Virus record (IMG/VR): IMGVR_UViG_2588253904_000003
Coordinates: 1-64,000 of that record
Direction: 5' to 3' (one strand)
Length of the DNA: 64,000 nt
Origin: a virus
Taxonomy: Duplodnaviria; Caudoviricetes
How positions within the stretch are numbered: the first letter of the stretch is position 1; each line of letters starts with the position of its first letter. The notes beneath the pieces were generated by a model. That model was not told the origin of the DNA. It did not search any database and saw only the letters and a program-made list of their open reading frames with translations. A program made the translations under genes and the position numbers. Shown here in pieces: positions 342 to 64,000 of this stretch.

Positions 342-1736
342 TCACAACTTTGTAAGCAGAAACCTTTCAAATGCCTCCCTCATATATCTAAAATTCTTTT
401 TCTGGTCCGGAAAATATGTATTATTCTTTTCTGCATACTCCGCAAGCCAATCATCCAAATCCTGATCTTCCTTATAAGAATAAACCACCATTGCAAGAAG
501 GGAAAGCCTGTTTTGTTTATCTAACAGCTTCGAACCTAACTTTATGGTTTTTTCCTCCAGGTCATTTAATGTCTCATGATAAAGGCTGATATCCTTCTCC
601 AATGTTTCTTTATCTATTTCCAGAGTTTCAGTCAAAAATAATATTTCATCAAAATTGTTCTTTTTGCCATTTGTTTTTTGCCTGTTATTATTTTTAGCAC
701 AAAGAAATTTCTCCATCAGGCAATTTAACATTTCCAGCTTTTCCGTAATGACAGCCTTGTCCTTTGTGCTTAAATCCCTGTCAATTTCATCAAACAAAAG
801 TCCTTTTTCATTTCTTTCAGAAAGCCTCAGATCTTCTTTAAATTTCCTCAAAAATTCAGCAAATCTCTGATCCTTGATTCCAAGGAACGTAAACTTGTCA
901 AATAAGGCAAGAAAAAGAAACGCATCCTTTTTATTAAAAAGACTTCTGATATCTTCTGTGACCACATGCTCTAATCTGTGCAGATTATCTGTCAGCTTAT
1001 CAAACTCTTCCTTAGATGCATTTTCATTCAGATACCTGCAAAGGGCTTTGGGCTGCTTTTTCCACTTGTCCAAATGATTGGTACACATAATGGTATCAGT
1101 AATTACCCGCTCAATTACACCTTTTGTCTTTTCAGGTTCTGAAAAACTACTACAATCCAGAAAAAAACGACAGTTTAAAATTTCACGTATATTTCCAGCA
1201 AATTTATCAATATAAGTAAATGCCTTCTGATCTGTATTCATGGGTGTGTGGTTATTGTATCTTTTGATATATTTTGAAATCCTATGGCTGTCGCAATTTT
1301 CATGGATAATTGTTTCCAACTGATATTCATTAAATCTCTTTTTCAATTCTTCCGGAAGCTTTTCATAAGTTTTATTTTTAATGTCGAATACTGCATCCTC
1401 CCAGTCTATGCTTCCATCTTCCCTTTTTACTTTTTTCTTATAAAAAATAATAGAATCTTCAATGGCAGATGTAACCTTATAATTTCCATTACGAAAGCTG
1501 TTTAACGCCGCACTTCTACAGCCGCCATCCGTAATATGTAATTGTGAGCTGCTTTCCTCCCCTAAAATAATAGGCGGAATATATTCATCAGCAAGAACTG
1601 TTACAATCAGCTCATTAATCTGTTCTTTATTCCAGACAAAGTTCCTTTGAACATCTGCATTATTGTCAATATCTCCATCCTCTATTTTACTCAAATACAT
1701 TTCCAATGTATAAATCTGCTTTCGTGGTCTTGCCAT
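342..1736 (-). CDS. DUF262 (ParB/Srx-like, GmrS-type) domain protein
   Basis: N-terminal QRNFVW...IPPIIL...ITDGGCR motifs; RBS GGAGG before ATG 1736 (MARPRK). Confidence 0.7.
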   Translation of the reverse strand: MARPRKQIYTLEMYLSKIEDGDIDNNADVQRNFVWNKEQINELIVTVLADEYIPPIILGEESSSQLHITDGGCRSAALNSFRNGNYKVTSAIEDSIIFYKKKVKREDGSIDWEDAVFDIKNKTYEKLPEELKKRFNEYQLETIIHENCDSHRISKYIKRYNNHTPMNTDQKAFTYIDKFAGNIREILNCRFFLDCSSFSEPEKTKGVIERVITDTIMCTNHLDKWKKQPKALCRYLNENASKEEFDKLTDNLHRLEHVVTEDIRSLFNKKDAFLFLALFDKFTFLGIKDQRFAEFLRKFKEDLRLSERNEKGLLFDEIDRDLSTKDKAVITEKLEMLNCLMEKFLCAKNNNRQKTNGKKNNFDEILFLTETLEIDKETLEKDISLYHETLNDLEEKTIKLGSKLLDKQNRLSLLAMVVYSYKEDQDLDDWLAEYAEKNNTYFPDQKKNFRYMREAFERFLLTKL

Positions 1737-1755
1737 TTTTCTTCCTCCCTGCATC

Positions 1756-2313
1756 TTAAAGCAATACAGATATATTCCTGTAAGAACGGATTGCTGCATT
1801 ACAATCTGCAAACTGCTTATTGCTGATCTGTAACTTTTCTTTTATTTCAACAGGAGAATAACCTATCACCTCCAAATGCAGTATTTTTCTCTGAAGGAGG
1901 GAAAGCCTGCCAAGATAAAGCAGCATTCTTTTACTGTATCTTTCTCCCTGTTTTCTTATAATCTCCTGTTCCATATTAAATTCATCTGCAATTACATCTT
2001 TTAAAGTGGAATCCTCATCATCTCCAACAGGCGTGTCAATGGAAATAATGCATCTCTTTACTTTACGTTTTTCACGATTTCTTCTTGTCATCTCCGATTT
2101 TATTCTATTTGACAGGCATGCGTACAAAAATACATCAAATGACTGAGAACGATCATACCGTTTTAATGCATCTGTAAACACCTCATTTGCAAGAGAGTAG
2201 AAATCATCTCTGTCCTTATCCGATATACCGCCAAACTTCCGTAATATTCTGTCAACCACCTTATGAAGTTTTTCCCCATTGTCATTATAATAGTCTGCTA
2301 ATATCTGTTCCAT
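1756..2313 (-). CDS. Sigma-70 family alternative sigma factor (phage type)
   Basis: DDFYSLANEVF...YDRSQSFDVFLY (region 2), ISIDTPV, C-terminal GYSPVEIKEKL helix-turn-helix. Confidence 0.75.
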   Translation of the reverse strand: MEQILADYYNDNGEKLHKVVDRILRKFGGISDKDRDDFYSLANEVFTDALKRYDRSQSFDVFLYACLSNRIKSEMTRRNREKRKVKRCIISIDTPVGDDEDSTLKDVIADEFNMEQEIIRKQGERYSKRMLLYLGRLSLLQRKILHLEVIGYSPVEIKEKLQISNKQFADCNAAIRSYRNISVLL

Positions 2314-2349
2314 TTTTAATTACCTTTCTTTCCTTTGCTTGTAATCATT

Positions 2350-2378
2350 AGTATAGAACATACGTTTGTGCTTGTCAA
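2350..2378 (-). promoter_or_regulatory. sigmaA promoter of the sigma/DUF262 operon
   Basis: Minus strand TTGACA (2378-2373), 17 nt spacer, TATACT (2355-2350). Confidence 0.8.
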
Positions 2379-2401
2379 TATATTTTTCGAACGTTTGTTT
2401 G
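2355..2401. promoter_or_regulatory. Two Gram-positive LexA (SOS/Cheo) box-like operators
   Basis: AGAAC-ATAC-GTTTG at 2355-2368 (in the promoter spacer) and CGAAC-GTTT-GTTTG at 2388-2401, compared with consensus CGAAC-N4-GTTCG. Confidence 0.7.
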
Positions 2402-2544
2402 TTTGTAAATCTTTTTTCCCTTTTGGCAGTGCCGGAATTCTTCGTCCCCACGCTTCCGCTCCATAAAAGTAATTTTTGCTCACTCAAAAAACAAATGGAG
2501 AAATAGTAATTAGAGGGATATGAAAGGAGGAAGAGAAACAACAA

Positions 2545-2730
2545 ATGGATGTACCCATTACAGATCACACCACCTTTGGAGGGAAAATCTTTTTTACAGA
2601 TTTTGACAGGAAAACTACATTAGCGGAAGTAGCGGAAAAAATTATTTCCGACAGAAAATTTGACCAGCAATGCATAAAAAACATGGAAATCCGAAGGGAA
2701 TGGAAAAAAACTTGTTGTGCGCAACAGTAA
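2545..2730 (+). CDS. Small hypothetical protein
   Basis: 61 aa ORF with AAGGAGG upstream. Confidence 0.5.
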   Translation: MDVPITDHTTFGGKIFFTDFDRKTTLAEVAEKIISDRKFDQQCIKNMEIRREWKKTCCAQQ

Positions 2731-2751
2731 ACGCAGAAAGGGAGGAAAACA

Positions 2752-3134
2752 TGTATCAAATTATAAAAGAAGGCTATACCATCAGGATCAAGCTGCCGGC
2801 AAAATGCGGGCAGGAAGGTTATTCCGTAAAATGTACCTACAAATATAAAAAGGCAAAAGAAAAATATATGCTTGCCCTATGGCTGAAACGGGATGATATT
2901 GAGGAGGATTTCAGAATTGACGCGCAGGAAATTGATGCCCAGCTGATTCCGGGAACAAGAGAAACCATTGAAAACAATATATTAAGAATCGTAAGGCATG
3001 CATATGAAACTGGTTATTTTGACCGTTATATCAAGCGGTTTGAATATACCTGCAAGTGCTTTGAAAAAGGAAACGAACTGATTGAGCAGGAAATAGAAAA
3101 CAAACGGGAAAGGGAGGCGGCTGACCATCAATAA
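2752..3134 (+). CDS. Hypothetical protein
   Basis: RBS GGGAGG before ATG 2752 (MYQIIKEG). Confidence 0.7.
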
Positions 3135-5748
3135 TACGCAATATACGCTTATAAAAATCCCCCTCAAAGATCTGATTTCAAAAAAATTTAATCTGTCAAT
3201 TGATAAAGAAGCTGAGCTTCAAAAAGGTTATCTGATCACGCAGGAAAGCTCCCTGCTTCTTGATCAGATTGAGCGGCTTCGCGAAAAACCTTCCTTACAT
3301 GTCAGTGAAATGATCCTTGTTGTGGCAAAAAAGAATCCCCGACAGGAAAAGGAACTCCGCCACATTTTAAATAATGGTTTCTTCTATAATGGAGTCCATT
3401 ATTCCAGATTCGGAAAATCCGCCTCACAGGCAAAGGAAGGAATTACCGCTTTTGTGTGTGACACCATTTTTGATGAATTATATCAAATAACCCAGATGGA
3501 TCTTCCGGTGAGGGAATGCGTAATTTCCAAATATGAAGCACAAAGATGCCTTTTATTTAGTTCCTGCACTTTGATACCTGACTATATGCCGAATATTGTT
3601 ATTATCGGCGAATATGAAAAAATTCTCCCAAATCAACTGATCAAATTTGTTGTGGAAAGGGAAAAAGAATTTACCGATAAGGCTACGGGTAAAAAGAAGA
3701 CATATCTGGCAAAGGAAATTGAAGAAGGTTATAAAGATTTAACGCTGTCTTTCTTTGACGGATGCGGCTGCCACGAACAGGAATTCATGGAAAAGGTAAG
3801 CGGGCAATTAGGACTGGATTACAATGCAGCAGGCGTACAGATACGTCTTCCCTTTATAAAAGGCTATTCTGTTTACGTTCCTTTCAGAAAGATACTAAAA
3901 GAATGGGGCTGTGAGTTTATCACAGACATTTATGGCACCAGACATCCCATTGACACCATTGACTGCATCTGGAACACCTCCATGTTTAAAGGCTGCAGGC
4001 TTTTTAAGGAAGCCTATGGCAGTAACGCATGGAAAGAATACCTGAACACCCTAAAAAAATACCATTTTAAATTAGGAATCAGTAAGTACAGTCATCACAT
4101 CAAAGATAGAAACAAATACACCCGCATGAATTTTCAGTATCTGCAGTGCTTAGACCTTTGGAACCCCAAATATATTGAACATTTTCAGCAAAGGAAACCG
4201 GATAATTATGATATTCTGGACAGTAAAAATGATGGAAAAATCATTCAGCTGGCCAGATACACCACCCAGCTTTATGAAAGAATTATCAAAGGCGAACCCT
4301 TTTATACTTACAAATTTATGGGAATTCATGATACCAACGGACATGAACCGGAAAGCAAATATCTGGAGGCTGCGCTTATCAATGACGCCATGCTGAAAGA
4401 TCCTGCCATCAAACAATTTATCTACAGAAAGCTGAAAAAAGCAATTCATGAAGCAAAGGTGGGAAAAATCTACTGTTCCGGATTTTATCATACCGGCGTT
4501 GGAGATATGATCGGCTATCTGCAATATGCTGCCGGTCAAAAGCCTGTCGGATGTTTAAGGGAAGGGGAATTGTACAGCGGAAATTTTGCTCCCGGCACTG
4601 TTTTATCCTTCCGCTCTCCCTTAGTAGATCCTTCGGAGGTTAATCGAATAAAGATCGTCCAAAATGATGTGCTTTTAAAATGGTTTGGGCACTTTAAGGA
4701 TCAGGATATTGTTATGTTTAACATGTATGATGCCTCCCTCCCCCAACAGGGAGGGGCTGACTGCGATGGCGACATTTTTCTGCTGACAGACGATCCTGTT
4801 CTGACTGCTTCCAAAATTGAAAAACACATCATTCTTGATCTGGAAGATAAAATAACCATTTCTCCAAAGCCCTACACAAAAGCCAATCTTACGGAATACG
4901 AGCTTATGACAAGGGACAGCCGGATTGGTGAAATCACCAATGCCGCCACAAGCATTATAAACAAATACACTGCTGGCAGCGACATCCAGAAACTGTATTC
5001 CGATTTCACTTCGCTGCTTCGGGTTTTTCAGGGAAAAGAAATCGATTTTCTGAAAACCGGTTTCCGCTGGCACATGAATAATGGTCTTAAAAAGCATTTA
5101 GATCAGCTTCCTTTCTTTTTGCTTTACAATTATCCAGCAAAGCTAAAGAAATATAAAGCAATTATGGAGAAAAACAAACAACTAAAAAATGGAGAAGAAA
5201 AGTTAATTCCCAACGCCTACCACTCCCCTTCCCCTATGAATGAGCTTTGTGATTATATTTGCACATGGGAAAAGAAACATATTCTTTGGGAACATGACAT
5301 TCATTCCCTGGATCACATCAAAAATTTAATTTTAAACAAAAACATAGCGCTCTCAGACAAAACTTCCCTGCGGATCTGCCGGAGGTTTATCAATCAATAC
5401 GCCGCCCAATTAAAGGAACAGCTGGAAAAAGAATGCACTGCTGCAGAATCTTCCCTTTTTTTAGACGCTGTAGTGGAAGAATACAAAAAGCAGTTAAAAT
5501 CGGTTCTGAACATGGAAGAGGAATTCATTGCCAACTATGTGATCTGCGCTTCCTATGCTTCCGTATCCATCAGCAAGGCTTTTGCATGGGCTGCCTACGG
5601 CGATTATATCATTGAAAATCTGCAAAGCAACACTGCGTCAAAAGAAAATGTTTCTATCAGGGAAGTTCCCCGAAAAACAGAAACCTCCTATGAATATCTT
5701 GGAAAATATTATGAATTTAAGGCAGGTGATACCGATTTACCAATGTGA
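3127..5748 (+). CDS. YonO-like single-subunit RNA polymerase (homologue of eukaryotic RdRP)
   Basis: Catalytic GGADCDGD (DxDGD) plus DGCG, QIRLPFIKG, FRSPL, IGEITN and EIDFLKTG blocks. The frame is open upstream of ATG 3310 to ATC 3127/CTG 3121, behind GGAGG at 3113-3117. Confidence 0.85.
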   Translation: MNNTQYTLIKIPLKDLISKKFNLSIDKEAELQKGYLITQESSLLLDQIERLREKPSLHVSEMILVVAKKNPRQEKELRHILNNGFFYNGVHYSRFGKSASQAKEGITAFVCDTIFDELYQITQMDLPVRECVISKYEAQRCLLFSSCTLIPDYMPNIVIIGEYEKILPNQLIKFVVEREKEFTDKATGKKKTYLAKEIEEGYKDLTLSFFDGCGCHEQEFMEKVSGQLGLDYNAAGVQIRLPFIKGYSVYVPFRKILKEWGCEFITDIYGTRHPIDTIDCIWNTSMFKGCRLFKEAYGSNAWKEYLNTLKKYHFKLGISKYSHHIKDRNKYTRMNFQYLQCLDLWNPKYIEHFQQRKPDNYDILDSKNDGKIIQLARYTTQLYERIIKGEPFYTYKFMGIHDTNGHEPESKYLEAALINDAMLKDPAIKQFIYRKLKKAIHEAKVGKIYCSGFYHTGVGDMIGYLQYAAGQKPVGCLREGELYSGNFAPGTVLSFRSPLVDPSEVNRIKIVQNDVLLKWFGHFKDQDIVMFNMYDASLPQQGGADCDGDIFLLTDDPVLTASKIEKHIILDLEDKITISPKPYTKANLTEYELMTRDSRIGEITNAATSIINKYTAGSDIQKLYSDFTSLLRVFQGKEIDFLKTGFRWHMNNGLKKHLDQLPFFLLYNYPAKLKKYKAIMEKNKQLKNGEEKLIPNAYHSPSPMNELCDYICTWEKKHILWEHDIHSLDHIKNLILNKNIALSDKTSLRICRRFINQYAAQLKEQLEKECTAAESSLFLDAVVEEYKKQLKSVLNMEEEFIANYVICASYASVSISKAFAWAAYGDYIIENLQSNTASKENVSIREVPRKTETSYEYLGKYYEFKAGDTDLPM

Positions 5749-6610
5749 CGAAATGTTTCTTTATGAAATAATTGAAGATTACAAGCAGGCAGAATCATCA
5801 GCAGAAAAGGATGAAATTTTTCACGCCTTCTGCACACTTCTCTGGTCTTCCGCCAATCAAAGAAGAACCTGCAGAAAGTCCATCCGTTTCCAGATTCCGG
5901 ATCACCTTCTTTCCACAAGACTTGGACAAGTTTTTCTCACCTGGTCGGACGTGGAATATAACCATTACAAATCCATGACCAAAAAGGAAGACTGGTGTTC
6001 TATCATCCGGCAGAAAGTCAATAACCTTTACACCAGATATTTTGATCAGGAAGTAATTTTAAACAAAGAATACATGGATCTGCTAAAAACACCAAAACGG
6101 TTATTTTATCAGTGGATCTCAGGAATTGACATGGACGCTGACCTTGTGACGGAAATGATTGATGATGCAATTGCCCGTTCTGAAAAGGTAAAAAAGAAAC
6201 TTCAGGCGGAAAAAATGGTTTTATCCTGGGCGGAATATAAAAAAGTGATCGAAGGGTTTTTAAGAAAGTCCTTAGAATGCTGCAGGCTGATCGAAGAATA
6301 TGAGAACAAGAATAAAATAATTACCGACCTGGATTTTCTGACGGAAGATCATTTCTATATTGGATACATCTGCAAACGGCTGGAAGGAAATATGAAGGAT
6401 TATCAAAAAGCCTATTACGGATTAAAGTCCGGTTCCCGAAAAGGATATACCCGCTGCAAGCTATGCGGTGCCCTGATTGAAAAAACAGGAAACAAGCGGA
6501 TGTATTGCAGAAAATGTGCTCTTATAAGAAAAAAGGAATCCAACAAAAAATCAGACCAGTCCTACAAAATAAAGCTGCGAGAAAATAAAAATCTTTTATT
6601 TCCCCTGTGA
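5726..6610 (+). CDS. Hypothetical protein with C-terminal Zn ribbon, possibly an RNAP accessory factor
   Basis: C-terminal CKLC...YCRKC; overlaps the end of the RNAP gene; start uncertain (GTG/ATT near 5726-5735). Confidence 0.55.
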   Translation: MIPIYQCDEMFLYEIIEDYKQAESSAEKDEIFHAFCTLLWSSANQRRTCRKSIRFQIPDHLLSTRLGQVFLTWSDVEYNHYKSMTKKEDWCSIIRQKVNNLYTRYFDQEVILNKEYMDLLKTPKRLFYQWISGIDMDADLVTEMIDDAIARSEKVKKKLQAEKMVLSWAEYKKVIEGFLRKSLECCRLIEEYENKNKIITDLDFLTEDHFYIGYICKRLEGNMKDYQKAYYGLKSGSRKGYTRCKLCGALIEKTGNKRMYCRKCALIRKKESNKKSDQSYKIKLRENKNLLFPL

Positions 6611-6705
6611 AATCAAACAAAACCGCTGTTTTTTTGCAGCTATATATCAAATATGGAAATCAAAGAAGTTCTAAGGTAAAACAAGCGCAAAAAGAGGCAA
6701 AATAT

Positions 6706-7521
6706 ATGAATATAACTTTTAGCAAGGCATTTTTAATGTCAGGGGAAGATTTTAAACTTACCTCCTCTATCACCCTGCATCACCCCACAATAAAAGAGAT
6801 TTTATCCATCAGCCAGTCCTCCTCTCCGGATCTGATTTATTGGAGCTACATCCAAATTCTGCTGGCTGATCCCTATCTGAATATGGTGATGCTGGATGAT
6901 ATGGGAAAAAATTATTTAGAAACCTCCCCCTATGAGGTTTTTCATCTCCAATGGGATAACTGCATTGCAAATTATGAGGAAAACAAAGCAGAATATGACG
7001 CTTACCAGATTCATCCCGGGGATCAAATCACAGATGCCCTTCAGTTCTTTATGGTGGAAACACATCATTTTAAAAAAGGATTCTATCAGGATGGAAGTCC
7101 CTGCTTCTATGACGAGGCCGATCCTTCCTGCCAGATTAATCAGGAAATCTTTGAATACATTTATCAGTGGGTAAAAGCAGTCAACAAAATTGACCACTCA
7201 GGCAGAATCCATCCTGCCGATGAAAATGCAAGACGTGTTCTCATTGAAGATATGCGGGAAGAAATCAAAAAAGCAAAAAGACGGAAGAAAAAGAAGGAGG
7301 AGGACTTTGACCTTTTAGGAAGTCTGATGGCTGCCGGCTGCTTTTGCGGCAATGGTTCTATTTCCCCCTTTCAAATAGGTGACTGCAAAATTTACTGGCT
7401 AAATGAAGCCCTTTCCCTCAATAACAGGAAAGATTACGCCAATCACCTGCTGGACGGTATTTATCACGGAACACTCCGTTTTAAGGACATTAATAAAAAA
7501 GAATTAGACTGGTTGAAATGA
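6706..7521 (+). CDS. Hypothetical phage-type protein, possibly tail assembly related
   Basis: ORF with likely ATG 6706, directly upstream of the tail tube gene. Confidence 0.5.
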   Translation: MNITFSKAFLMSGEDFKLTSSITLHHPTIKEILSISQSSSPDLIYWSYIQILLADPYLNMVMLDDMGKNYLETSPYEVFHLQWDNCIANYEENKAEYDAYQIHPGDQITDALQFFMVETHHFKKGFYQDGSPCFYDEADPSCQINQEIFEYIYQWVKAVNKIDHSGRIHPADENARRVLIEDMREEIKKAKRRKKKKEEDFDLLGSLMAAGCFCGNGSISPFQIGDCKIYWLNEALSLNNRKDYANHLLDGIYHGTLRFKDINKKELDWLK

Positions 7522-7538
7522 TTGGTCTTTTCTTATAA

Positions 7539-7710
7539 AAAACAAGGAGGATAAATCCTCCCCTCGCCAAAGAGGCTCGGATTTTCCTTCGGAAAACAAG
7601 GAGGTTAAATCCTCTCCTCGCCAAGGGGCTCGGATTTTCCTTCGGAAAACAAGGAGGTTAAATCCTCTCCTCGCCAAGGGGCTCGGATTTTCCTTCGGAA
7701 AACAAGGAGG
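7539..7710 (+). repeat. Tandem 53-54 bp repeat, three copies plus a partial fourth, each with a Shine-Dalgarno sequence
   Basis: Unit AAAACAAGGAGGTTAAATCCTCTCCTCGCCAAGGGGCTCGGATTTTCCTTCGG starting at 7539, 7593 and 7646; the partial copy at 7699 provides the RBS of the 7718 gene. Confidence 0.95.
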
Positions 7711-7717
7711 ATTAAAA

Positions 7718-8521: not shown

Positions 8522-8575
8522 ATCAGCAAATGCAATGGGAAATACGCACTGCGTACTCTCATTACAAATCAATCC

Positions 8576-8601: not shown

Positions 8602-8616
8602 ATGAGGTGAAATGTT

Positions 8617-55305: not shown

Positions 55306-55884
55306 TTGAACGATAAAGCATATTTTATTATTACCCTTCTTTTCGGATGGTGTGGCGCTCACAAATTTATCCAAAAGAAGTACGGTATGGGCCTTCTGTA
55401 TCTTGTTACTTTCGGATTGTTCGGACTTGGATGGGCCGCTGACTGCTTCCGGGCCCTGCTGCCGGTGCTCCGTCATAAAAATGGTGCTCCTGCTGCCAGT
55501 GCTCAGCATGATAACATTGTGGATCAGCTCTGCCTCTCCCTGGATCCTGAATTTGTTTCCTTCGTTCTGCCCATGATTAAGGCAGGGCTTTCATGGAATA
55601 GAATTGAGCAGGCTTACCGCTCTTCTTTTCCTGATTCAGAATGTGAGGATCTTGCCCTCAGAATCCAGTATGTTGAAAGTTATTACTCAAATTCTACTGA
55701 GATCGCAAGCCTGAAGGAATGCGGGGCCTCAAAGTATCGGATCATTTCAATGCCCGATCATGAATTATGTGATATTTGTAAGAGATTCAAAGGCCGTACT
55801 TTTCCGGTATCCTCTGCAAGGATCGGCTACAACTGCCCGCCCTTCCACCTTGGATGCCGGTGTACCACCGTTATAGAAGAATAA
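55306..55884 (+). CDS. TM2-domain membrane protein fused to a MuF-like Cys/His domain
   Basis: FGWCGAHKF...GLLYL.TFGLFG.GW (TM2) plus C..C...CPPFHLGCRCT. Confidence 0.7.
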   Translation: MNDKAYFIITLLFGWCGAHKFIQKKYGMGLLYLVTFGLFGLGWAADCFRALLPVLRHKNGAPAASAQHDNIVDQLCLSLDPEFVSFVLPMIKAGLSWNRIEQAYRSSFPDSECEDLALRIQYVESYYSNSTEIASLKECGASKYRIISMPDHELCDICKRFKGRTFPVSSARIGYNCPPFHLGCRCTTVIEE

Positions 55885-56017: not shown

Positions 56018-57598
56018 ATGAATTTTGGAATATATTGCAGAAAATCATATTTTGTTGATACTTCAGAGAGCACACAGATGCAGCTCTCCATGTGTAAAAA
56101 TCATATAGAGCAGCGCTTTCCTGAGGTTGATTCCCTCGCATTCTATGAAGATGATGGTTATGTGCGCTCAGATATGGATCGGCCCGGCATGAACCAACTG
56201 AAGGAAGATATTGCAGCAGGCCTCATTGATTGTGTGGTTATTTACAAAATAGATCGGGTGTGCTCCGATATGATGGACTTTTGCACCTTCTACTCTTACC
56301 TGAAGGAGCATGAGATCAAATTTATCACTGTTCAGGATGGCATTGATACCACCACACCCCTGGGAGAGGCCATGATGTACTTGGCTGTAATCTTTTCCGG
56401 CCTGGAAGTTCGCACAGATTCCCTCAGGATCACCGATAATATGAACCACCTGGCGGCAAGTGGCTTTTGGTGTGGGGGCCGGGCTCCCGTTGGCTATGAT
56501 ATTGCCACTATTGACCTGGGGGCAAAATCCCACAAAACGCTCACATTCAATCAGGAAGAGATCGACTATAAAAACAATCTTATTGACATATTCTTAGAGA
56601 ACGGCTTCAGCCTTCAGAGCATGGAAACATATTGCAAAAACAACCGGATCACCTCTTTAAAAGGCAGCTTCCTCTCTACAACTCAGTTATACAACCTTTT
56701 CACCTCTCCTCATTGTGTTCAGGATACTCCGGCCATGTATGACTATTTTGAAGCTAAAGGCTGCATGATTGATGAAAATTCCCCCCGTGAGAAGTGGGAT
56801 GGCCAACATGGGATCATTGTATATGGCCGCACCATGGAAAAGCGGGTGAACGGCAAAAAGCGCCACTCCCTGGCACCGCCTGAGAAGTGGCGGGTGAGTA
56901 TCGGCTTTCATAAGCCATATATGACGGATCAGCGCTTCTTTTCCATTATGGCCCAATTCGGGCATAATACTTTTTCAAAGGTTGCAAAGTATGATCTGCC
57001 GCTCCTGAAGGGTGTGCTCCGGTGCAAGTGTGGCCGCACCATGAGCATGAGCCGCAAGCAAAAAGTGGATGGCTCTGTTTCCACCTGGTACTATTGCCCC
57101 AAACGCATGAGGGCCGGTGCTGAGGCTTGCGACATGCGGCAAATTAAGGCCGATCTACTGGATGGGAAGGTGTTGGACGTGTTCAAAGAAATACAGCACA
57201 ACCCGGCCACCGTCAAAAAATACCTGAAGGACGGGAAAAAGCCTGCAAGGGATTCCTCTGCCTCTGTCCGGGCCCAAATGGAAACATGCCAGGAAAAGAT
57301 CGGGAAGCTCACCGCCGCCCTGGCCGTGAATAATGAATCTGCTGCTGCAAAGTATATTATAGGGGAGATTGAAAAACTTGATATAGAATATAATACCCTC
57401 AAAAGCAAGCTGCTGAATTTTGCCGCTGAGGAAAGACGGGCCGCCGCCCAAATGAAGAGCGCTATGGAGAAAAGAGAGGCCATCATTCGGCTTTTGGATA
57501 ATTTTGATAGTTTCACAGCAAATGAGAGGAATGAGATCGCCAAAAATGTGCTGAAGGAATGCACCTGGGATGGGGAAACGCTTTTTATTGTGCTTTAG
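56018..57598 (+). CDS. Large serine recombinase (integrase)
   Basis: YCRKS catalytic Ser, DRPG, KIDR, G.W.GG.AP.GY, LKG.LRC.CG Zn ribbon, coiled coil. Confidence 0.95.
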   Translation: MNFGIYCRKSYFVDTSESTQMQLSMCKNHIEQRFPEVDSLAFYEDDGYVRSDMDRPGMNQLKEDIAAGLIDCVVIYKIDRVCSDMMDFCTFYSYLKEHEIKFITVQDGIDTTTPLGEAMMYLAVIFSGLEVRTDSLRITDNMNHLAASGFWCGGRAPVGYDIATIDLGAKSHKTLTFNQEEIDYKNNLIDIFLENGFSLQSMETYCKNNRITSLKGSFLSTTQLYNLFTSPHCVQDTPAMYDYFEAKGCMIDENSPREKWDGQHGIIVYGRTMEKRVNGKKRHSLAPPEKWRVSIGFHKPYMTDQRFFSIMAQFGHNTFSKVAKYDLPLLKGVLRCKCGRTMSMSRKQKVDGSVSTWYYCPKRMRAGAEACDMRQIKADLLDGKVLDVFKEIQHNPATVKKYLKDGKKPARDSSASVRAQMETCQEKIGKLTAALAVNNESAAAKYIIGEIEKLDIEYNTLKSKLLNFAAEERRAAAQMKSAMEKREAIIRLLDNFDSFTANERNEIAKNVLKECTWDGETLFIVL

Positions 57599-57607: not shown

Positions 57608-57636
57608 AATTATTTTGATACCCTCAGCGATCTTCC
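57608..57636. other. Right attachment site
   Basis: ATTTTGATACCC-TCA-GCGATC; the rebuilt attP has arms TTATTTTGA / TCAGAATGA (imperfect inverted repeat). Confidence 0.75.
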
Positions 57637-58078
57637 GAAAGGAACCGTTATTTTTAATGAAGCACAGACAAAAGAAATCTTCCAAAATAAAGCGGATACT
57701 ATGGGCAGCGTTTCTGCAAGCGGCTCTACAGGACAAAGCATTCCCGGAAAACCCACTCTTCCTCCGCCTCAGCGCCCTGCCTTTTTGGTGCAGCAGGAAT
57801 TGCAGGAAGAATGCCTTGCAAAAACAGGCAACATTACGGATAAAATTTTATCTCCCCTAAATATGCTTTCCCGCAATTGGAAAGACATGGCCGGCCTGAC
57901 AGGAAACATAAATCATATCAATCACAATGGACAAAACCAGTCTGTCAATGTAGGCGGCATCAATATCACCTGTCCCGGCGTTACCAGTCAGGAAGTGGCC
58001 AGACAGTTAGGGACAGAATTAAATCATATTTTCAGCGGATTCCATAACTATGCAGACCAGCAAAGCAGAGTCAGATAA
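57627..58078 (+). CDS. Tape-measure protein C-terminal portion, separated by the prophage
   Basis: Reads (S)DLPKGTVIFNEAQTKEI in frame with the 57701-58078 ORF; continues QPTI from 16500. Confidence 0.85.
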
Positions 58079-58110: not shown

Positions 58111-58368
58111 ATGGATTTTAAAACAGAACTTTTAAACGCAATCCAGATCATGGTAAACAGGAAACTTGACGACTACAAAGCAGACCGCACCTACAAATCT
58201 GTAGTAAAAAGCATTACCCAAAAAGGATACATAGTATTGGATGAAGCAGGCAGTGAACGTATTGTTCCCTGCTGCATTCCCAATCTAACGCTCAAGGCCG
58301 GACAAAACGTCTGGCTTAAAGAGCCTATGGGAGATCTGAAAGGTCTGCATATTTGCGGCATTTTATAA
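58111..58368 (+). CDS. Small tail-associated protein
   Basis: 85 aa, first gene after the TMP. Confidence 0.55.
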   Translation: MDFKTELLNAIQIMVNRKLDDYKADRTYKSVVKSITQKGYIVLDEAGSERIVPCCIPNLTLKAGQNVWLKEPMGDLKGLHICGIL

Positions 58369-58400: not shown

Positions 58401-59618
58401 ATGGCCAAACCCTATATTCAAAAAATAACTCCATTTGATGCCGACAAAGATTATGAAATCTCTTTATCATGGACCGGAAGCCGCGCCCATGCAAACAGAA
58501 TCATCATCTACGATAATGATACCAACAACATTTTGTTTGATGATACGGTGTCTTCCTTTGCACTTAAACATACGATTCCCGCTTATACCCTGACCAATGG
58601 CAAAAAATATGTAATTCAGGCGCAAACCTATGACGTGGAAAACCTCCCTTCTCCCCTGTCAGACAAGGTTTTGTTTTTTACCTTTGAAACGCCTGCGTTT
58701 TATTTTAACAATCTTCCTGAAAATCACAGGATTACAAATGCCTCTTTTTCGGCTTCTCTTACCTATCATTCCCCTGATTGGGAAGACATCAGCACCTATG
58801 TGTTTTCCCTTTATGACTCTACCAAAAAGCTGCTGCTTTCCAGCAGCCCGCTGACAGATTCCTTTGATATCAGCTATACCTATCGGGGACTTGAAAACAA
58901 TACCGTCTACTATATCAAATGTACAGGGGTTACGGTTAACGGAATGGAGCTGGATACCGGCTATCAGGAAATAAGTGTTAAATACGAAAACCCAAATGCC
59001 TACTCAAGAATCTACAGTACCGCCATCCCCTCGCAGGGGTGTGTACAGGTTGCCACGAATCTGATCATTATTCAATATAATGGGACGGAAACCTTCGAAT
59101 ACCCGGATGGAATGATTGACCTTAGAGACAAAACTCTATATTATGACGAGGGATTTTTGATTGAAAACGACTTTACACTGCTGATTCGGGGCACACATCT
59201 CTGGCAGAATGCGGACATTCTCAAAATGAGCAGCAAAAAAGCTTCTCTGACGCTAAGCTCCCATATTTACAGCGGCGGAAAGCTCCGTTTTAAACTGCTT
59301 GTTCCAAATGGAGTGAGCAGTTATTTATTATATTCCAAAGAGCAGGTTTTTGAAAATGAAGATATGGTCACAATTGCGGTGAGGAAAAAAGAGAATATCT
59401 ATCAGCTAAAGGTTTTTGTCTCTCCCGGCTTTTCTCCGGAGGGTAATCTGTGGTATGGCACACAGCGTCCTGATCCTGCCCTAATAAAGATTTATGACAG
59501 TTGGATTGATACAGAAGGTTCCACCCATGTTGTTTACAAAGAATCTTTTACTACCTTTTTAGGAGAAACAGAACCCGTAAATACAGTAACAAGCGACCTA
59601 TGGTTAGGAGGTGATTAA
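58401..59618 (+). CDS. Tail/baseplate protein with Fn3/Ig-like domains
   Basis: LTNGKKYVIQAQT and GLENNTVYYIKC Fn3-like strands; AAGGAGGTG RBS. Confidence 0.65.
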   Translation: MAKPYIQKITPFDADKDYEISLSWTGSRAHANRIIIYDNDTNNILFDDTVSSFALKHTIPAYTLTNGKKYVIQAQTYDVENLPSPLSDKVLFFTFETPAFYFNNLPENHRITNASFSASLTYHSPDWEDISTYVFSLYDSTKKLLLSSSPLTDSFDISYTYRGLENNTVYYIKCTGVTVNGMELDTGYQEISVKYENPNAYSRIYSTAIPSQGCVQVATNLIIIQYNGTETFEYPDGMIDLRDKTLYYDEGFLIENDFTLLIRGTHLWQNADILKMSSKKASLTLSSHIYSGGKLRFKLLVPNGVSSYLLYSKEQVFENEDMVTIAVRKKENIYQLKVFVSPGFSPEGNLWYGTQRPDPALIKIYDSWIDTEGSTHVVYKESFTTFLGETEPVNTVTSDLWLGGD

Positions 59619-59623: not shown

Positions 59624-60553
59624 ATGTTTTTATGTGGAAGTAATTTCGTTGGAGGAGCACTGGCATGTGCCATTACTCCTACCAGCATAGAACCAATTCA
59701 TTATGTTGAGCTGAAAAACGGAGTCTATGATGATCTGTATCTCAGCAAAGCAGTCGATTTTGAACTTACAGATACCTGCCCTAATGAATGGAACTTTGAC
59801 ACCATACTTTGGGCAAAATTTAACGGAAATGCCAATGCAGGAAATGTTGACTGGAATCTGGAAACCACTTCCCACCTTATTTTAAAAAGCAGAAATGAAG
59901 GAGAATTTAAATGGAAAACCATTGCAGTAAAAGAAATTCATTCTACCGACGATTTTGTAATCAATTATCCTGATTACTTTATTGCCTCCGGCCAGACAGT
60001 GGAATATGCGGTGGTAAATGTTTTATATGGCGCAGAAGGCAACTACGCAACCACAAAAATCACGCCAAAATTCAGTCAGATGTTTTTAATTGAAAATGGA
60101 GTTGTGTGGGGAACGGAAATCACAGACGGAAACTGCAACACTACCCGCTGTATTCCCTCTTCCACTGTGGAACTGCTAAACAGCCGCTATCCCATTTTTA
60201 TCAGAAACACTCTTGCTAATTATGACACCGGAAACTGCACAGGCTCATTTGTGCCTCTAATGGATGAGGCTGGCTGTGATCTGGCCTATGACGACCAGCA
60301 CGATTATCAGCGGATCAGATATCAGAAAGAGTTTATGGATTTTCTGGCGGATGGAATCCCAAAGATACTGAAACTGCCTGATGGCAGGCTTTGGATTATC
60401 CAGGTAACACCCAGTCCTTCCGACAGCGCAAAAACCAGATATAATGACAGGGAAATTTCCTGGTCATGGGTTGAAATTGGAGATGTCAACTCAGAGGAAG
60501 ATCTATATTACCTGGGATTTTCTGAGGTGTCCCCGGAATGGTGGAATAAATAA
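59624..60553 (+). CDS. Distal tail-like structural protein
   Basis: FL.DG.PKILK..DGR.W...W.EIGD; synteny. Confidence 0.55.
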   Translation: MFLCGSNFVGGALACAITPTSIEPIHYVELKNGVYDDLYLSKAVDFELTDTCPNEWNFDTILWAKFNGNANAGNVDWNLETTSHLILKSRNEGEFKWKTIAVKEIHSTDDFVINYPDYFIASGQTVEYAVVNVLYGAEGNYATTKITPKFSQMFLIENGVVWGTEITDGNCNTTRCIPSSTVELLNSRYPIFIRNTLANYDTGNCTGSFVPLMDEAGCDLAYDDQHDYQRIRYQKEFMDFLADGIPKILKLPDGRLWIIQVTPSPSDSAKTRYNDREISWSWVEIGDVNSEEDLYYLGFSEVSPEWWNK

Positions 60554-62379
60554 TGGCGGACCAAATTACCCAGGAAGATCTGGTTTTAGTACTTTCTCAA
60601 TCCGCATCTCCACGGCTTGACCTGAAAATTGAAGTTTTAGACCAGAATCAAAAAATCATGGAAACCATTCATGGGGTGGTAACTGGCAGTATGTCTGTTT
60701 CCGGAGAATCGGAGGTAAGGCGTACTGCCAGCCTGACCGTCCAGCCAACCATAACCGAAAAACTAAAGCTTACCGAAGACAGTCTGCTTTGGCTTAATAA
60801 AGATATCCGTATTTTTATCGGCCTGTATAACTGCAGAACCAAACAATATAAATATTATCCTTTAGGGTACTATGTCTACACTGATACCTCAGGCTCCTAT
60901 GATGCTGTATCTAACAGTCTTTCCATTAACTGTGCCGATTTCATGAAAAAACTGGATGGCACAAAAAACGGACAATTAGGCCCACTGCTGATCAGCTATC
61001 CGGCGTACAAAGAAAATACAGAAACAGGGGAAGTGATAGAATACTATACCATACGCGGTGCAGTGATTGAAACTCTGGAAAATCTGGCACATATCACCAA
61101 GCATCGAATTGACGATATTGGCGAATACAAGGCTATGCCTGAATACAATGACTCCTGGCAGCAATACCGGGAGGAAAATGAAACCTGGAATGCCATCCCT
61201 TTTGATCAGGAATTTTCTTCAGGATGCAGTGTGCTGTCCATTTTAACTGCCTTCCGGGATCTGTACCCTAACTATGAAATGTTCTTTGATATGGATACCA
61301 ACACATTTATCTGCCAGCTTAAGCCTATGTGCTATGAGGATGACCTATACCTGGACAACAGCTTTTTACAAAAGGTGTTGATCTCTGAAAGCACTTCCGT
61401 CGACATGACCTCGGTCAGAAACATTTGCGAAGTGTGGGGAAAGGTGATAGAAACTGACTTTTACAGTGAAGAATGCACCTATTCCAATCATACTTATTCT
61501 GCTTCTATTGCCGGATATGAAGACGGGTATTTTAACGGAGACGTAATTGCCTTAAAAATCCCGGCTGCAAATCAGGCAGGCTCACAGCTCAACATCAATC
61601 AGTTGGGAGCTGTTCCCATCTGCAGCGAGGCAGATGACACACCTATTGCAGAAAATGAACTAAAGTCCGGTAATGTTTATGCTTTTAAAATAAAAAGAAG
61701 CCGCCCTTCACAAGCTAAACCATCAGCTAAATCAACTGTTAATTTAGCTGCTAATAAAGCAGGCGGGGGCAAACAGGATGTAATAAAAGCTTATCTACTG
61801 GGACAATGGCAGGTACATGCCCTGAATGTTTTAACAAACGGAAGAAAAAGTGGAAAACATGTATCTGACTCCCACGGACAGGAATATGAATTATACTCCA
61901 AAGAATATTTTCAAAAGTTCTATAACTGCCAAAGAGTAGATATGACGATTATCCCCAATTCCCCTTTTGTGGTAGAAAAGCTTGGTGAAATACCTGACAT
62001 CAAAACAGGAAGCGAATATGAAAATATTACTTCTGATGATCTGGCAGCAGACAGAGCCAAATGGGAAAACTGGAAAAACTGCCGGCTCACAGATCATATC
62101 ACCATTACAACCGCTCTCCTGCCCTTCCTTGATGTAAACAAAAAAATATCCTATAAACCCAGTGATTCGGACAGGGAGTATCAATACATTATCAGCTCCA
62201 TTTCCCATGATTTTTCAGGCTATACCACCACAATAACCATGTACCGTTTTTATCCTTTGTATGAAACACTGCTTAAGGAAGCCGGTACTCATAAGGTTTT
62301 ATCCGAATTCAGTCATGGGGTTTTAAGTAAGTACACCCATGATGAACTTGCTGCAGTTATCAGCGAAGAAGAACTATAG
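60553..62379 (+). CDS. Tail tip/hub protein
   Basis: S.VRRT.SL, C.D.M.KLDGT.NG, LPFLDVN.KI.Y; 608 aa. Confidence 0.6.
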   Translation: MADQITQEDLVLVLSQSASPRLDLKIEVLDQNQKIMETIHGVVTGSMSVSGESEVRRTASLTVQPTITEKLKLTEDSLLWLNKDIRIFIGLYNCRTKQYKYYPLGYYVYTDTSGSYDAVSNSLSINCADFMKKLDGTKNGQLGPLLISYPAYKENTETGEVIEYYTIRGAVIETLENLAHITKHRIDDIGEYKAMPEYNDSWQQYREENETWNAIPFDQEFSSGCSVLSILTAFRDLYPNYEMFFDMDTNTFICQLKPMCYEDDLYLDNSFLQKVLISESTSVDMTSVRNICEVWGKVIETDFYSEECTYSNHTYSASIAGYEDGYFNGDVIALKIPAANQAGSQLNINQLGAVPICSEADDTPIAENELKSGNVYAFKIKRSRPSQAKPSAKSTVNLAANKAGGGKQDVIKAYLLGQWQVHALNVLTNGRKSGKHVSDSHGQEYELYSKEYFQKFYNCQRVDMTIIPNSPFVVEKLGEIPDIKTGSEYENITSDDLAADRAKWENWKNCRLTDHITITTALLPFLDVNKKISYKPSDSDREYQYIISSISHDFSGYTTTITMYRFYPLYETLLKEAGTHKVLSEFSHGVLSKYTHDELAAVISEEEL

Positions 62380-62392
62380 AAAGGAGATCAAA

Positions 62393-62977
62393 GTGGCTAC
62401 ATACACGATTTATAAAAGTCTGGAAAAACCAGTCAGCACAGAGCGGTATAATGTGAACGTGGCAAATAAAAACTGTGATGTAATTGACGCAGAGCTTCAT
62501 AAACTTGACTTAAAAAATGAAAGTCAGGATAACCTGCTGGCAACAAAAGAAGCCCTAAACGCAAAAGCTGACCAGTCCCTGCTGGATGCTCATACCGGCA
62601 ATACCGTCATCCATGTAAGCACATCCGATAAGGATAACTGGAATGCTGCCAGTGTCCATGCGGATTCTGCCCACGCCCGCATAGATGCATCAAAGACAGA
62701 ACCTTCAGAAATAAATGGCAACATTATGCTAAATGGCATTGAAACCACTGTTTACACCCATCCCTCCGGCCCCAATCCCCATAATGTCTCAAAAGAAGAC
62801 ATTGGACTTGGTAATGTGGAAAATAAAAATTCCGCTGCTATAAGAGACGAATTAACAAAGGAAAATGTAATTGCCGCATTGGGTTACACGCCCTCTGTAA
62901 CAGATGGCGGCGGCATCTCTTACTCCGATTCAGAACCAGACGTACTATCTTCCGGTATGACCTGGATCGGCAATTAA
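62393..62977 (+). CDS. Tail fibre-associated protein
   Basis: GTG after AAGGAG; HTGN..IHV and NPHNVSKEDIGLGNVEN fibre motifs. Confidence 0.7.
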   Translation: MATYTIYKSLEKPVSTERYNVNVANKNCDVIDAELHKLDLKNESQDNLLATKEALNAKADQSLLDAHTGNTVIHVSTSDKDNWNAASVHADSAHARIDASKTEPSEINGNIMLNGIETTVYTHPSGPNPHNVSKEDIGLGNVENKNSAAIRDELTKENVIAALGYTPSVTDGGGISYSDSEPDVLSSGMTWIGN

Positions 62978-63080
62978 TTATGAAAAAAACGAACTTGTTC
63001 GTTTTGCAAATCTTATGCCTGTACAATACGCAAAGCTTGTATGAAAGTTTGCACGGCAATGGCAGAAATGGAGGAAAATT

Positions 63081-63410
63081 ATGACAGAATTTTCAAACGA
63101 ATTTAGCAGCTTTCCTTCCGGGAAGATTACAAAACACAACTTTAAAAATATTGACGACAGCATTGCATCCGTAATTAATCAGATCAATTCCCTGCGCAGT
63201 CAGGGATTATACAATCAGGCTGCCCGCATTATTGAGAATAACTCTGATGTGTTATCTCAATATATTGCTGACGCTTCCACTTTCAGAACCTGGGAGGAAG
63301 AAATATATAATACCCAGATCTATGCAAAGCAGCAACAGCAATCCATCTATTTTGATGACCAGGAGCCTGACTGCATTGATGGAGACGTCTGGCTTGGAGG
63401 TGATGCTTAG
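63081..63410 (+). CDS. Small tail-associated protein, paralogue of the next gene
   Basis: GGAGG RBS; similarity to 63410-63730. Confidence 0.6.
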   Translation: MTEFSNEFSSFPSGKITKHNFKNIDDSIASVINQINSLRSQGLYNQAARIIENNSDVLSQYIADASTFRTWEEEIYNTQIYAKQQQQSIYFDDQEPDCIDGDVWLGGDA

Positions 63411-63730
63411 TGTTATGTAACCCAGTATCTTACTACCCGGAAAAAATTGATGAAATGACTTTTTTTCAGGACAATAACATTGAAAATGCGGAAATCATCC
63501 ACACCTATAACAATTTAATTTCACAAGGCAGCTACAACACCGCAAATGATTTTATCAGCAAACAGGATGGTATTTATGGCTTTTTTGCTGATTTTCTTAA
63601 CCTCATTGAAAACCGTATCTACAATCTTCAGGCTTATCTTCTGCAAAAGCCTCCGAAAAAGCAGCCCTTTGCTACTTTTGATGAGGAAAAAGAACTTCCT
63701 GCTATAGATGTAGATACTATTTGGATTTAA
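63410..63730 (+). CDS. Small tail-associated protein
   Basis: Coupled ORF similar to the previous gene. Confidence 0.6.
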   Translation: MLCNPVSYYPEKIDEMTFFQDNNIENAEIIHTYNNLISQGSYNTANDFISKQDGIYGFFADFLNLIENRIYNLQAYLLQKPPKKQPFATFDEEKELPAIDVDTIWI

Positions 63731-63800
63731 ATATGATTGTATACAGTCCTTGGAGAGGGACGATAAACACTACTACTTTATCATACAAGGAGAATAGAAA

Positions 63801-64000
63801 ATGGCAGTTAATGAAACAATTGTAACTGGTAGAAAATTTAGAAAATGCATTGATGCAGCAACCAAAGCATGGCAGAGGATATCCTTCTGGACCAAGTCAT
63901 CTGACGTAGAATTTGAGGACGGAAAAAATGCAGAGACAAAATTGGGCGCTATTGACGGAATTACGGATAGTTTAGAGGATACTTCATCACGTATGGCCGC
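63801..64000 (+). CDS. Probable tail fibre protein, truncated by the window edge
   Basis: AAGGAG RBS; MAVNETIVTGRKFR...RISFWTKSSDVEFEDGKNAE. Confidence 0.6.
   Translation, partial: MAVNETIVTGRKFRKCIDAATKAWQRISFWTKSSDVEFEDGKNAETKLGAIDGITDSLEDTSSRMA

Follow-up and report, generated by a model that had tools for sequence, protein, structure and literature searches.

A capsid-less phage-tail locus of Clostridia with its own sigma factor and YonO-type RNA polymerase, a candidate SOS-induced F-type tailocin

The 64,000-nt stretch comprising positions 1 to 64,000 of the IMG/VR record IMGVR_UViG_2588253904_000003 (hereafter the window, to which positions refer; G000:C1:479194-543193) contains a phage-derived locus that combines a sigma factor and a single-chain RNA polymerase resembling YonO of phage SPbeta with genes for a tail and for lysis. 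After two later insertions are subtracted this outer locus measures ~26 kb. Its genes run in the order sigma-DUF262 operon, YonO-type polymerase, zinc-ribbon protein, helical protein, tail tube, holin, GH25 lysin, tape measure, tail tip, and fibres, and every gene named in a first-pass annotation of the window was found at the place given there. Comparison with related sequences indicates with high confidence that the outer locus is a maintained headless derivative of the SPbeta-like temperate phages of Clostridia. The likeliest role of this capsid-less derivative is that of an F-type tailocin, induced by SOS and run by a transcription cascade of its own, a reading to which we give a probability of about 0.65; its gene content predicts bactericidal particles and killing.

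Head genes were sought with Pfam, PHROGs, and NCBIfam, run on every outer-locus open reading frame (ORF) of at least 80 aa. No capsid, portal, terminase, packaging, or replication gene was recognised by these in the outer locus up to the host tatD gene on its right, and neither Pfam nor PHROGs gave a head gene from position 64000 to tatD. The interval between polymerase and tube contains solely the zinc-ribbon protein (5750-6610) and the helical phrog_4051 protein (6607-7521), for which no match to a head family and no capsid-like fold was found. The first-pass claim that terminase, portal, capsid, and replication genes are missing from this interval is thus borne out by Pfam, PHROGs, and fold searches alike. 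The head and packaging module, replication genes, and integrase of a complete SPbeta-like prophage were not found in the outer locus.

Host genes border the locus on both sides. The genes to the left of position 1 encode a hydrolase, an HD protein, an RNA methyltransferase, and a chemotaxis receptor; no integrase was found in this flank, as had been claimed for the left edge. On the right, the host tatD gene is reached at window coordinate 75275, ~11 kb past the window, followed by a transporter operon with ABC-transporter genes. A complete phage with head genes beyond the window or at another locus was conceivable while the first reading ended at 64000, but with host genes on both sides it is hardly credible. 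Across the whole genome, matches to PF03237 (Terminase_6N), PF03354 (TerL_ATPase), and PF04860 (Phage_portal) are limited to a prophage nested inside the locus (40504-41127) and to other prophages on contigs C19 and C23, and each terminase match on these two contigs has a portal match within about 4 kb. A terminase of the large-phage type (from L078) gave no match in this genome; the query is distant and the empty result shows nothing.

The same layout recurs in other bacteria. Scanning one genome per species yielded 79 loci with polymerases 44-82% identical, mostly in Lachnospiraceae with a few in Oscillospiraceae, Clostridium, Paenibacillus, Lysinibacillus, and Sinanaerobacter. Following ORF clustering of all loci, a locus was called headless when it had the phrog_4051/tube pair at most 7 kb behind the polymerase and lacked the exonuclease and terminase families. 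This layout is seen in 56 of the 79 loci. Six carry the polymerase, its partner gene, an exonuclease, and then a terminase, six are cut at the polymerase by a contig end, and 11 could not be assigned to either layout, five of these with <4 kb of downstream sequence. DUF262 and/or sigma are found on the left in 36 of the 56 headless loci. End-to-end extension covered the window and four loci, the remaining headless loci being judged on the region after the polymerase. All four extended loci keep the layout, and the extra large ORFs in them are fibres or spikes according to PHROGs. The gene set which the first-pass annotation proposed to look for elsewhere is therefore present in a large share of the related loci. 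On the complete chromosome of Clostridium asparagiforme DSM 15981 the element spans ~31 kb, from DUF262 to two Xer-like recombinases, and is followed by host-like genes.

Viral relatives show what the headless loci lack. Exonuclease or terminase markers follow the polymerase in 61 of 80 IMG/VR loci, many of which sit on contigs of 80-217 kb. The four headless loci among the 80 are all on short contigs (16-28 kb), and 15 are not assignable. All five large phage records examined contain homologues of the tube (E 1e-21 to 9e-85) and of sigma, DUF262 follows sigma in 4/4 large-phage pieces, and LexA-type boxes lie near sigma in one of the four. In G446, the only record with distances worked out, the tube is ~24 kb downstream of the polymerase and sigma is ~44 kb away. 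This comparison indicates that the headless layout corresponds to a phage minus two blocks, one separating the sigma operon from the polymerase and the other, the head region, lying between the partner gene and the tube. The shared tube, sigma, and adjacent DUF262 fit the earlier proposal of a reduced SPbeta-like phage.

The tail set begins with the major tail tube protein (7718-8521, +; 267 aa; phrog_2729), which is of the SPbeta/SPR type. It was aligned with 51 homologues from related loci, and its AlphaFold2 (AF2) model has a predicted local distance difference test (pLDDT) score of 92. The best Foldseek match is 8ygm_A ('cryo-EM structure of SPR'; E 2e-14, template modelling (TM) scores 0.73/0.80), followed by the tail tube protein 8xkn_B (E 4e-14), with TM scores of 0.71-0.80 for these top two. 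The tubes of YSD1, Chi, JBD30, and Mystique come next among the fold matches. SPR counts as one of the SPbeta-like Bacillus phages, and the matches to SPR and other such tubes point to a non-contractile tube of the SPbeta type. No sheath family matched any outer-locus protein in Pfam or PHROGs, and this, with the resemblance of the tube to those of non-contractile phages, agrees with the first-pass remark that no sheath gene was recognised. In all four RNA-library runs described below, one extra G relative to the window follows position 7677, just upstream of the tube gene.

The tube gene is always preceded by that of the helical phrog_4051 protein (6607-7521, +), whose true start is probably the ATG at 6706. 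Its AF2 model has a pLDDT of 82 with residues 1-31 disordered, its matches in BFVD are uncharacterised siphovirus proteins only (E 4e-6), and as modelled it is not a capsid fold. Downstream of the tube are a holin (8721-9215, +; phrog_13712, E 5e-28) and a GH25 muramidase acting as the putative endolysin (9222-9920, +; PF01183, E 7e-27). Seventeen related loci carry a class-V aminotransferase gene (PF00266, E 2e-48; phrog_12787; e.g. L013:15603-16751) between the tube and lysis genes, where the window has none. The lysis genes are followed by a conserved 152-aa protein (9913-10371, +), a tail assembly chaperone by position only. It was found by tblastn in 28 of the 79 loci, belongs to a family (F6) present in 27 loci, and matches function-less PHROGs and phage-associated hypothetical clusters in the Atlas, which gave only unnamed viral clusters for this protein and for the 405-aa tip protein described below.

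The tape-measure gene is interrupted in this copy. A first part of 116 codons (10432-10779, +) is followed by a 1,614-nt intervening sequence (10780-12393, +) with a 255-aa ORF (11487-12254), a candidate group I intron, and then by the main part (12394-16501, +; ORF from 12352). The latter is a very long coiled-coil ORF with homologous tape measures at the same place in G041-G044, and the related family F12 matches PF10145 and phrog_4211. The long ORF closes in unnatural-looking residues after ...TTQPTI. Here a GC-richer, leftward-transcribed block of ~41 kb, evident from composition and ORF orientation, sits within a locus of 33-42% GC. This nested prophage (16502-57626, −; GC 0.44-0.50 vs. 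0.33-0.42) carries a terminase (40504-41127) and a large serine recombinase (56018-57598, +) that adjoins the right junction. The C-terminal part of the tape measure (...ISDLPKGTVIFNE...) follows at 57627-58078 (+).

Contigs from three mouse-gut RNA libraries (three studies) pass from 16501 directly into the letters at 57627, those of X15 and X19 matching exactly past the junction and that of X18 with one letter different. These junction-spanning contigs place the nested prophage at 16502-57626, with a TCA core, and indicate that the uninterrupted gene exists in nature, reading in frame into ...ISDLPKGTVIFNE. An inner prophage had been reported before; its presence is confirmed, and its integration, by means of the large serine recombinase, into the 3' part of the tape-measure gene is an addition to that report. 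For the C-terminal piece (57629-58078), BLAST against the G041-G044 tape measures gave nothing significant, and the rejoining of the gene rests on the RNA-library contigs. Rejoined, the tape measure has 116 + 1,519 = 1,635 codons. One X18 contig also joins 10779 to 12394 precisely in frame, skipping the intervening sequence, and other X18 contigs lie within the skipped 1,614 nt. This join could reflect splicing or an intron-less DNA allele. As Rfam recognised no intron model at gathering score or E ≤1 on 10300-12700, the stretch is termed an intervening sequence. In several headless loci (G041-G044; L089-L102) the tape measure is preceded by a separate PhageMin_Tail ORF of ~400-740 aa, the two lying 1-2 kb apart with small minus-strand ORFs in the gap, an arrangement reminiscent of the intervening sequence of the window.

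Tail-tip and fibre genes complete the set. An 85-aa ORF (58111-58368, +), matched by an 83-aa ORF at the same place in G041 and G044, precedes a 405-aa tail-tip protein (58401-59618, +), the distal tail protein by position, whose homologues follow the tape measure in G041-G043 and whose Atlas clusters have lectin-like features. Next are a 309-aa phrog_27355 tail-tip protein (59624-60553, +; E 8e-51), syntenic in G041-G043, and a 608-aa tail protein with DUF5048 (60553-62379, +; PF16467, E 1e-45; phrog_1887 'tail protein', E 1e-14). A fibre-like protein (62339-62977, +; phrog_38707, with weak matches to tail collar fibre PHROGs) is followed by two small ORFs of 109 and 106 aa (63081-63730, +) with no PHROG match. 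The window ends in the start of the expressed fibre gene (63801-64000, +), the 3' part of which is a candidate for exchange within a four-cassette inversion system, marked by 15-bp core repeats, that extends to ~75120.

In the stretch to the right of the window (L001), four copies of the 15-bp core alternate in orientation, at positions 24(+), 804(-), 2036(+), and 11106(-) of L001; none of 200 shuffles reached four matches. A Xer-like tyrosine recombinase (window coordinates 64896-65981, −) lies between copies of the core. It was at first read as an integrase, an assignment that was dropped once the four inverted cores had been confirmed, and its sequence context argues for a fibre invertase. 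The inspection beyond 64000 that the first-pass annotation called for went in its favour: Pfam and PHROGs gave no capsid, portal, or terminase there, and the tyrosine recombinase close to the right edge of the window lies in a context favouring a fibre invertase. Between the third and fourth fibre cassettes lies a small integrative element (L001:2400-10500, window ~66400-74500) encoding a Rep_OBD plus helicase protein, a Tn916-type tyrosine integrase, a helix-turn-helix regulator, and a protein with 15-nt tandem repeats.

The locus thus joins a non-contractile tail set, a lysis cassette, and stable inheritance (see below) with the absence of capsid and sheath, as in an F-type tailocin; the tip roles are assigned by position and the distribution within the family is patchy.

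Control of the locus appears to begin with the leftward operon. Its first gene encodes a divergent sigma-70 family sigma factor (1756-2313, −) with weak Sigma70_r2/r3 matches, a TIGR02937 match (E 3e-9) below the cut-off of that model, weak RpoS/SigH matches in the PDB, and homologues in 42 of the 79 loci. The second encodes a DUF262/GmrSD_N protein (342-1811, −; PF03235, E 7e-9) with homologues in 44 of 79 loci and no match among PDB sequences by phmmer. Upstream of sigma (2350-2400, −) is the promoter TTGACA-17-TATACT (2378->2350), the best sigma-70-type match within the first 12.5 kb with 11 of 12 positions. The LexA box consensus is GAAC-N4-GTTC/T, and two boxes of the form GAAC-N4-GTTT overlap this promoter, one in the spacer (2356-2367) and one upstream of the -35 element (2389-2400). 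Within 250 nt ahead of sigma, 31 of 42 loci have at least one GAAC-N4-GTTY box, and 21 of the 42 have two, usually ~30 nt apart. The density of boxes in this region is 4.95 per kb vs. 0.061 per kb in the rest of the same loci, an 81-fold enrichment, and the order -10, box, -35, box aligns across loci. LexA-like boxes at sigma had been noted from the window alone, and the related loci extend that observation.

The polymerase (3310-5748, +) combines a two-barrel core (PF05183, E 6.5e-16), homology to YonO (tblastn against SPBc2 yonO: E 3e-11 over 93% of the query, 22% identity), and an intact DxDGD motif (DCDGD, residue 484), and so is of the YonO type; it also matches phrog_8308 (E 4e-59). Its frame is open from 3097, and the stretch 3097-3309 encodes a conserved N-terminal extension of 71 codons (…LLLDQIERLR…). 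An RBS-like (ribosome-binding site) sequence, AAGGGAGG, is found within the extension at 3110-3117, the L010 polymerase ORF begins 117 codons further upstream, and X15 and X16 contigs lack 18 nt at 3089, the stretch holding the in-frame TAG of the window. The sequence TTTGACCAGAT upstream of the polymerase ATG was considered as a promoter and rejected, being coding sequence of the extension. In a number of other loci (L032, L066, L069, L071, L072, L081, L085, L162-L165, L173, L174, L177) the polymerase gene is found in two to three tblastn pieces ~200-1,100 nt apart; these splits may be introns, inteins, or mobile insertions.

After the polymerase, in 72 of 79 loci and in headless and full-size elements both, comes a gene for a zinc-ribbon protein (5750-6610, + in the window) with cysteine pairs (CKLC...CRKC at the C-terminus), a candidate partner of the polymerase. 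The candidate late promoter TATATATCAAATATGGAAA follows at 6641-6659 (+), ~47 nt ahead of the ATG at 6706 where the helical protein probably begins. It is the sole match in the window, with none in L001, and a related motif lies 14-182 nt, mostly 30-60 nt, past the stop of the partner gene in 41 of 62 loci, again both headless and full-size. Another motif, the 14-nt ACACRAYARAATGA, has no match in the outer element; its four matches (≤2 mismatches) are all in the nested prophage, vs. 3.3 expected by chance. Ahead of the polymerase, a candidate promoter of the rightward operon (2497-2515, +; RNAGAARTA plus an A/T-rich stretch) may be read with the element sigma. RNAGAARTA is found at the matching place in 22 of 42 loci, at 1.6 per kb vs. 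0.19 per kb elsewhere. It is followed by a conserved small ORF of 61 aa (2545-2730, +; family F9, in 21 loci, no PHROG match) and by a further ORF upstream of the polymerase (2670-3134, +; family F14), which was found by tblastn in 11 of 79 genome loci, is also seen in large-phage loci, and has no family match.

YonO transcribes the late structural and lysis genes of SPbeta as one operon, and in the accessible text of that report its promoter and cofactor needs were left open (PMC5467207). The position of the polymerase here, heading tail and lysis genes and followed by a conserved motif, is consistent with transcription of late genes. The following cascade can be proposed. Self-cleavage of LexA, presumed to bind the observed and conserved boxes, would open the promoter 2378->2350 for synthesis of the element sigma and the DUF262 protein. 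The sigma factor would then guide host core polymerase to the motif at ~2497, giving transcription of the small ORF, g04, the YonO-type polymerase, and its zinc-ribbon partner. The private polymerase would start at 6641-6659 and transcribe one long late operon from the helical protein through tube, lysis, chaperone-like, tape measure, tip, and fibre genes. Tails would assemble on the tape measure of ~1,635 residues and be freed when holin and GH25 lysin lyse the producer. Finally, the tyrosine-recombinase shufflon may alter the fibre tip and hence the target range. Because the nested prophage splits the tape-measure gene and the operon, the cascade cannot finish in this genome unless that prophage excises.

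Inheritance of the element was examined by comparing loci that share host flanks. The window and L010 have their left host flank in common, and element dS (synonymous divergence), at 0.34-1.02, is like that of the flank, at 0.30-0.83. The ratio of nonsynonymous to synonymous divergence (dN/dS) is 0.05-0.20 overall (tube, 0.053; helical protein, 0.069; polymerase, 0.108; sigma, 0.150; DUF262, 0.072; holin, 0.103; lysin, 0.118). Eight more flank-sharing pairs, making nine in total, are alike, with dN/dS mostly 0.03-0.2, a few short ORFs higher, and several dS values saturated. One subgroup of loci, the sigma-less one described below, has the host genes der, plsY, gpsA, and one resembling gyrB as immediate neighbours.

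RNA libraries offer a further view of the locus. Six metatranscriptome runs (five studies) contain 22-45% of the sampled words of 2300-10400, and in four mouse-gut RNA-library runs (four studies) contigs span most of 1-16500. The tube gene lies on a contig of its own in two runs, at depths of 44.7 (7678-8506) and 33.2 (7684-8611) with adjacent bins at 0 to ~10, and X18 reaches 26.8-30.6 further on, inside the intervening sequence. Such contigs cannot rank genes, RNA libraries may contain DNA, and uncovered parts say nothing of silence. The contigs are a hint that the locus is expressed.

Several observations weigh against a maintained, inducible tailocin. Particle production, induction, and killing are predictions from gene content, and RNA-library contigs do not prove transcription. 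Tail terminator, distal tail protein, and tail-associated lysin were not identified by family, their roles being positional, and the helical protein has no known fold (no Foldseek match in the PDB at E ≤0.001; best VIA-align Z 3.4). The Xer-like recombinase could be an integrase. LexA-type boxes are absent within 250 nt of sigma in 11 of 42 loci. A sigma-less subgroup (L056, L057, L064, L068, L086) has a different operator. In this subgroup, genes for 334-aa and 120-aa proteins replace DUF262 and sigma, and a repeated AATGCATTTAAAAC operator, without a LexA-type box, flanks a TTGACA promoter in five of the seven sigma-less loci shown.

Four more points on this side would also be expected of functionless SPbeta-like prophage debris from which head and early regions were deleted. 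This copy is interrupted twice, by the 41-kb prophage in the tape-measure gene and by the ~8-kb integrative element among the fibre cassettes. The conserved N-terminal extension of the polymerase contains no ATG, GTG, or TTG and so lacks a canonical start. The polymerase is patchily distributed, in 10 of 401 genomes of the family (one per genus) and in none of 24 genomes of the genus to which the window belongs. Lastly, the headless loci fail to group into a single clade when polymerases are compared, a pattern that repeated decay would produce. In trees of the first 480 residues (FastTree, 156 rows; IQ-TREE, 63 dereplicated rows) headless and full-size kinds interleave, at least eight changes being needed on the FastTree tree and seven on the IQ-TREE tree, and a single clade of 47 headless rows was rejected by the approximately unbiased (AU) test (log-likelihood (lnL) difference 166.8, p 0.0002). 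Either the layout arose more than once or the polymerase module was exchanged with phages. Decay is nonetheless improbable, since the same two large blocks are gone in 56 loci of different species, ORFs are intact with dN/dS of 0.03-0.2 for tube, helical protein, polymerase, sigma, holin, and lysin at dS that is saturated or flank-like, regulatory motifs are conserved, and the uninterrupted tape-measure gene is present in RNA-library contigs. The proposal that synteny and purifying selection would mark a maintained locus therefore stands for the nine syntenic pairs, whereas the distribution is as patchy as decay would have it.

A satellite or helper-dependent element that supplies or steals the tails of co-resident SPbeta-like phages, or moves in their capsids, would account for several of the same findings. 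Polymerase, partner, and late motif are common to the large phages at ~70% identity, the interleaved tree suggests exchange inside shared hosts, and a tyrosine recombinase is present. Such an element is unlikely all the same, as no replication, packaging, or excision gene was recognised in the outer locus, chromosomal position is kept within lineages with dS like that of the host flanks, and the recombinase is bracketed by inverted fibre cassettes. The rarity of the headless layout among viral sequences, where it is confined to four short contigs of the 80 IMG/VR loci, also argues against a satellite.

A wider version of the tailocin reading can be put forward tentatively. Here the loci would form an undescribed, widespread tailocin class with a private programme leading from LexA to sigma, to the YonO-type polymerase with a zinc-ribbon specificity factor, and to one late promoter, in genetic exchange with large SPbeta-like phages. 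As the polymerase module and late promoter are common to the large phages, an infecting relative could also trigger the element, which would then be both a weapon and a phage-triggered suicide switch. That it is chiefly an anti-phage suicide device, in which the polymerase of an infecting phage fires the late promoter to cause premature lysis and the DUF262/GmrSD-like enzyme acts as a second defence, is highly doubtful. The late motif shared by headless elements and full-size phages, the lysis cassette early in the late operon, and the conserved GmrSD_N-domain protein are in keeping with such a device. However, a passive decoy could do without a polymerase, sigma, and SOS boxes of its own, purifying selection acts on a full and costly set of tail genes that includes a fibre-switching system, and the sigma-DUF262 pair is also found in the phages themselves.

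To our knowledge no tailocin is known from Lachnospiraceae, the dominant gut family, and none with an RNA polymerase of its own. The latter had been stated in the first-pass annotation, and among the matches listed in searches of the literature on tailocins and YonO none describes one, nor does any of those on YonO since 2017 concern tail-only loci. The monocin of Listeria, the efagins of Enterococcus, and the Clostridium histolyticum tailocin are likewise chromosomal and headless, with a non-contractile tube, tape measure, tip, and fibre set and a lysis cassette (10.64898/2025.12.13.693970, 10.64898/2026.06.17.733002). The accessible text of neither preprint mentions an RNA polymerase for these loci, whereas the locus described here has a private one. 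The tube is of the SPbeta/SPR type with 267 aa, compared with 159 aa given there for that of C. histolyticum, and the tube model has only weak matches among monocin cap and tip chains (E 0.03-0.05). Beyond what is found in known F-type tailocins, this locus has the LexA-boxed sigma, the tape-measure intervening sequence, and the candidate fibre shufflon.

In SPbeta, according to the accessible part of the YonO report, as in this locus, a single-chain two-barrel polymerase (PF05183, DxDGD) heads the late structural and lysis genes (PMC5467207). SPbeta is however a complete phage of ~134 kb, while the locus lacks head, packaging, replication, and lysogeny genes and its polymerase has only 22% identity to YonO. 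We take the SPbeta terminase and portal to lie between yonO and the tail genes, and in Thomasclavelia phage TR-TP1 terminase and portal are found between polymerase and tail genes. Closer relatives are the uncultured SPbeta-like phages and proviruses of Lachnospiraceae with 80-217 kb (IMG/VR; e.g. L104, L106, L112), which have polymerases 68-72% identical, the same partner and motif, a homologous tube, and a sigma-DUF262 pair. They differ in having an exonuclease, a terminase, and the rest of the virion module between polymerase and tube.

PBSX of B. subtilis is also a domesticated, SOS-inducible phage-like element; its late genes rely on a sigma-like factor that the element itself encodes, and release is through lysis. 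Unlike the present locus, PBSX makes a contractile tail and packages host DNA in small heads, and it has no private RNA polymerase. SigN (ZpdN) of B. subtilis pBS32 is, in the accessible text of its description, similarly an element-borne, LexA-repressed sigma factor linked to cell death after DNA damage (PMC6751061). It works there with the host polymerase alone, whereas the sigma factor here appears to act one step above a private polymerase; the two are likened by description and not by homology.

Interest in tailocins centres on their use as narrow-spectrum antibacterials and on their part in driving competition between strains. Should these loci prove to make particles, a killing device triggered by SOS and fitted with switchable fibres would be present in dozens of species of gut Clostridia. 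The locus is also a compact test bed for YonO-type transcription, with one polymerase, one candidate specificity factor, and one candidate promoter, and if a single late promoter is indeed used, no natural system for working out promoter recognition by YonO-type enzymes would be smaller. The comparison with full-size phages, which reveals the two lost blocks, gives a rare, intermediate-rich view of a phage becoming a bacterial tool.

Some minor features remain. At the left border a small conserved ORF (1-303, −; family F36) is matched by tblastn in three of the 79 loci (L010, L070, L076), left of DUF262 in each, and has no match in Pfam or PHROGs. Among the tiny contigs of assembly G000, C4 and C5 have 16-18% GC and C6-C18 48-64% GC, vs. 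40% for the chromosome pieces, and these are maybe contaminants or repeats. The nested prophage has a TM2/Mu-F-like fragment ORF (55306-55884) and a diversity-generating retroelement RNA (RF03077, 21577-21855; RT-2), the only Rfam match in the whole window.

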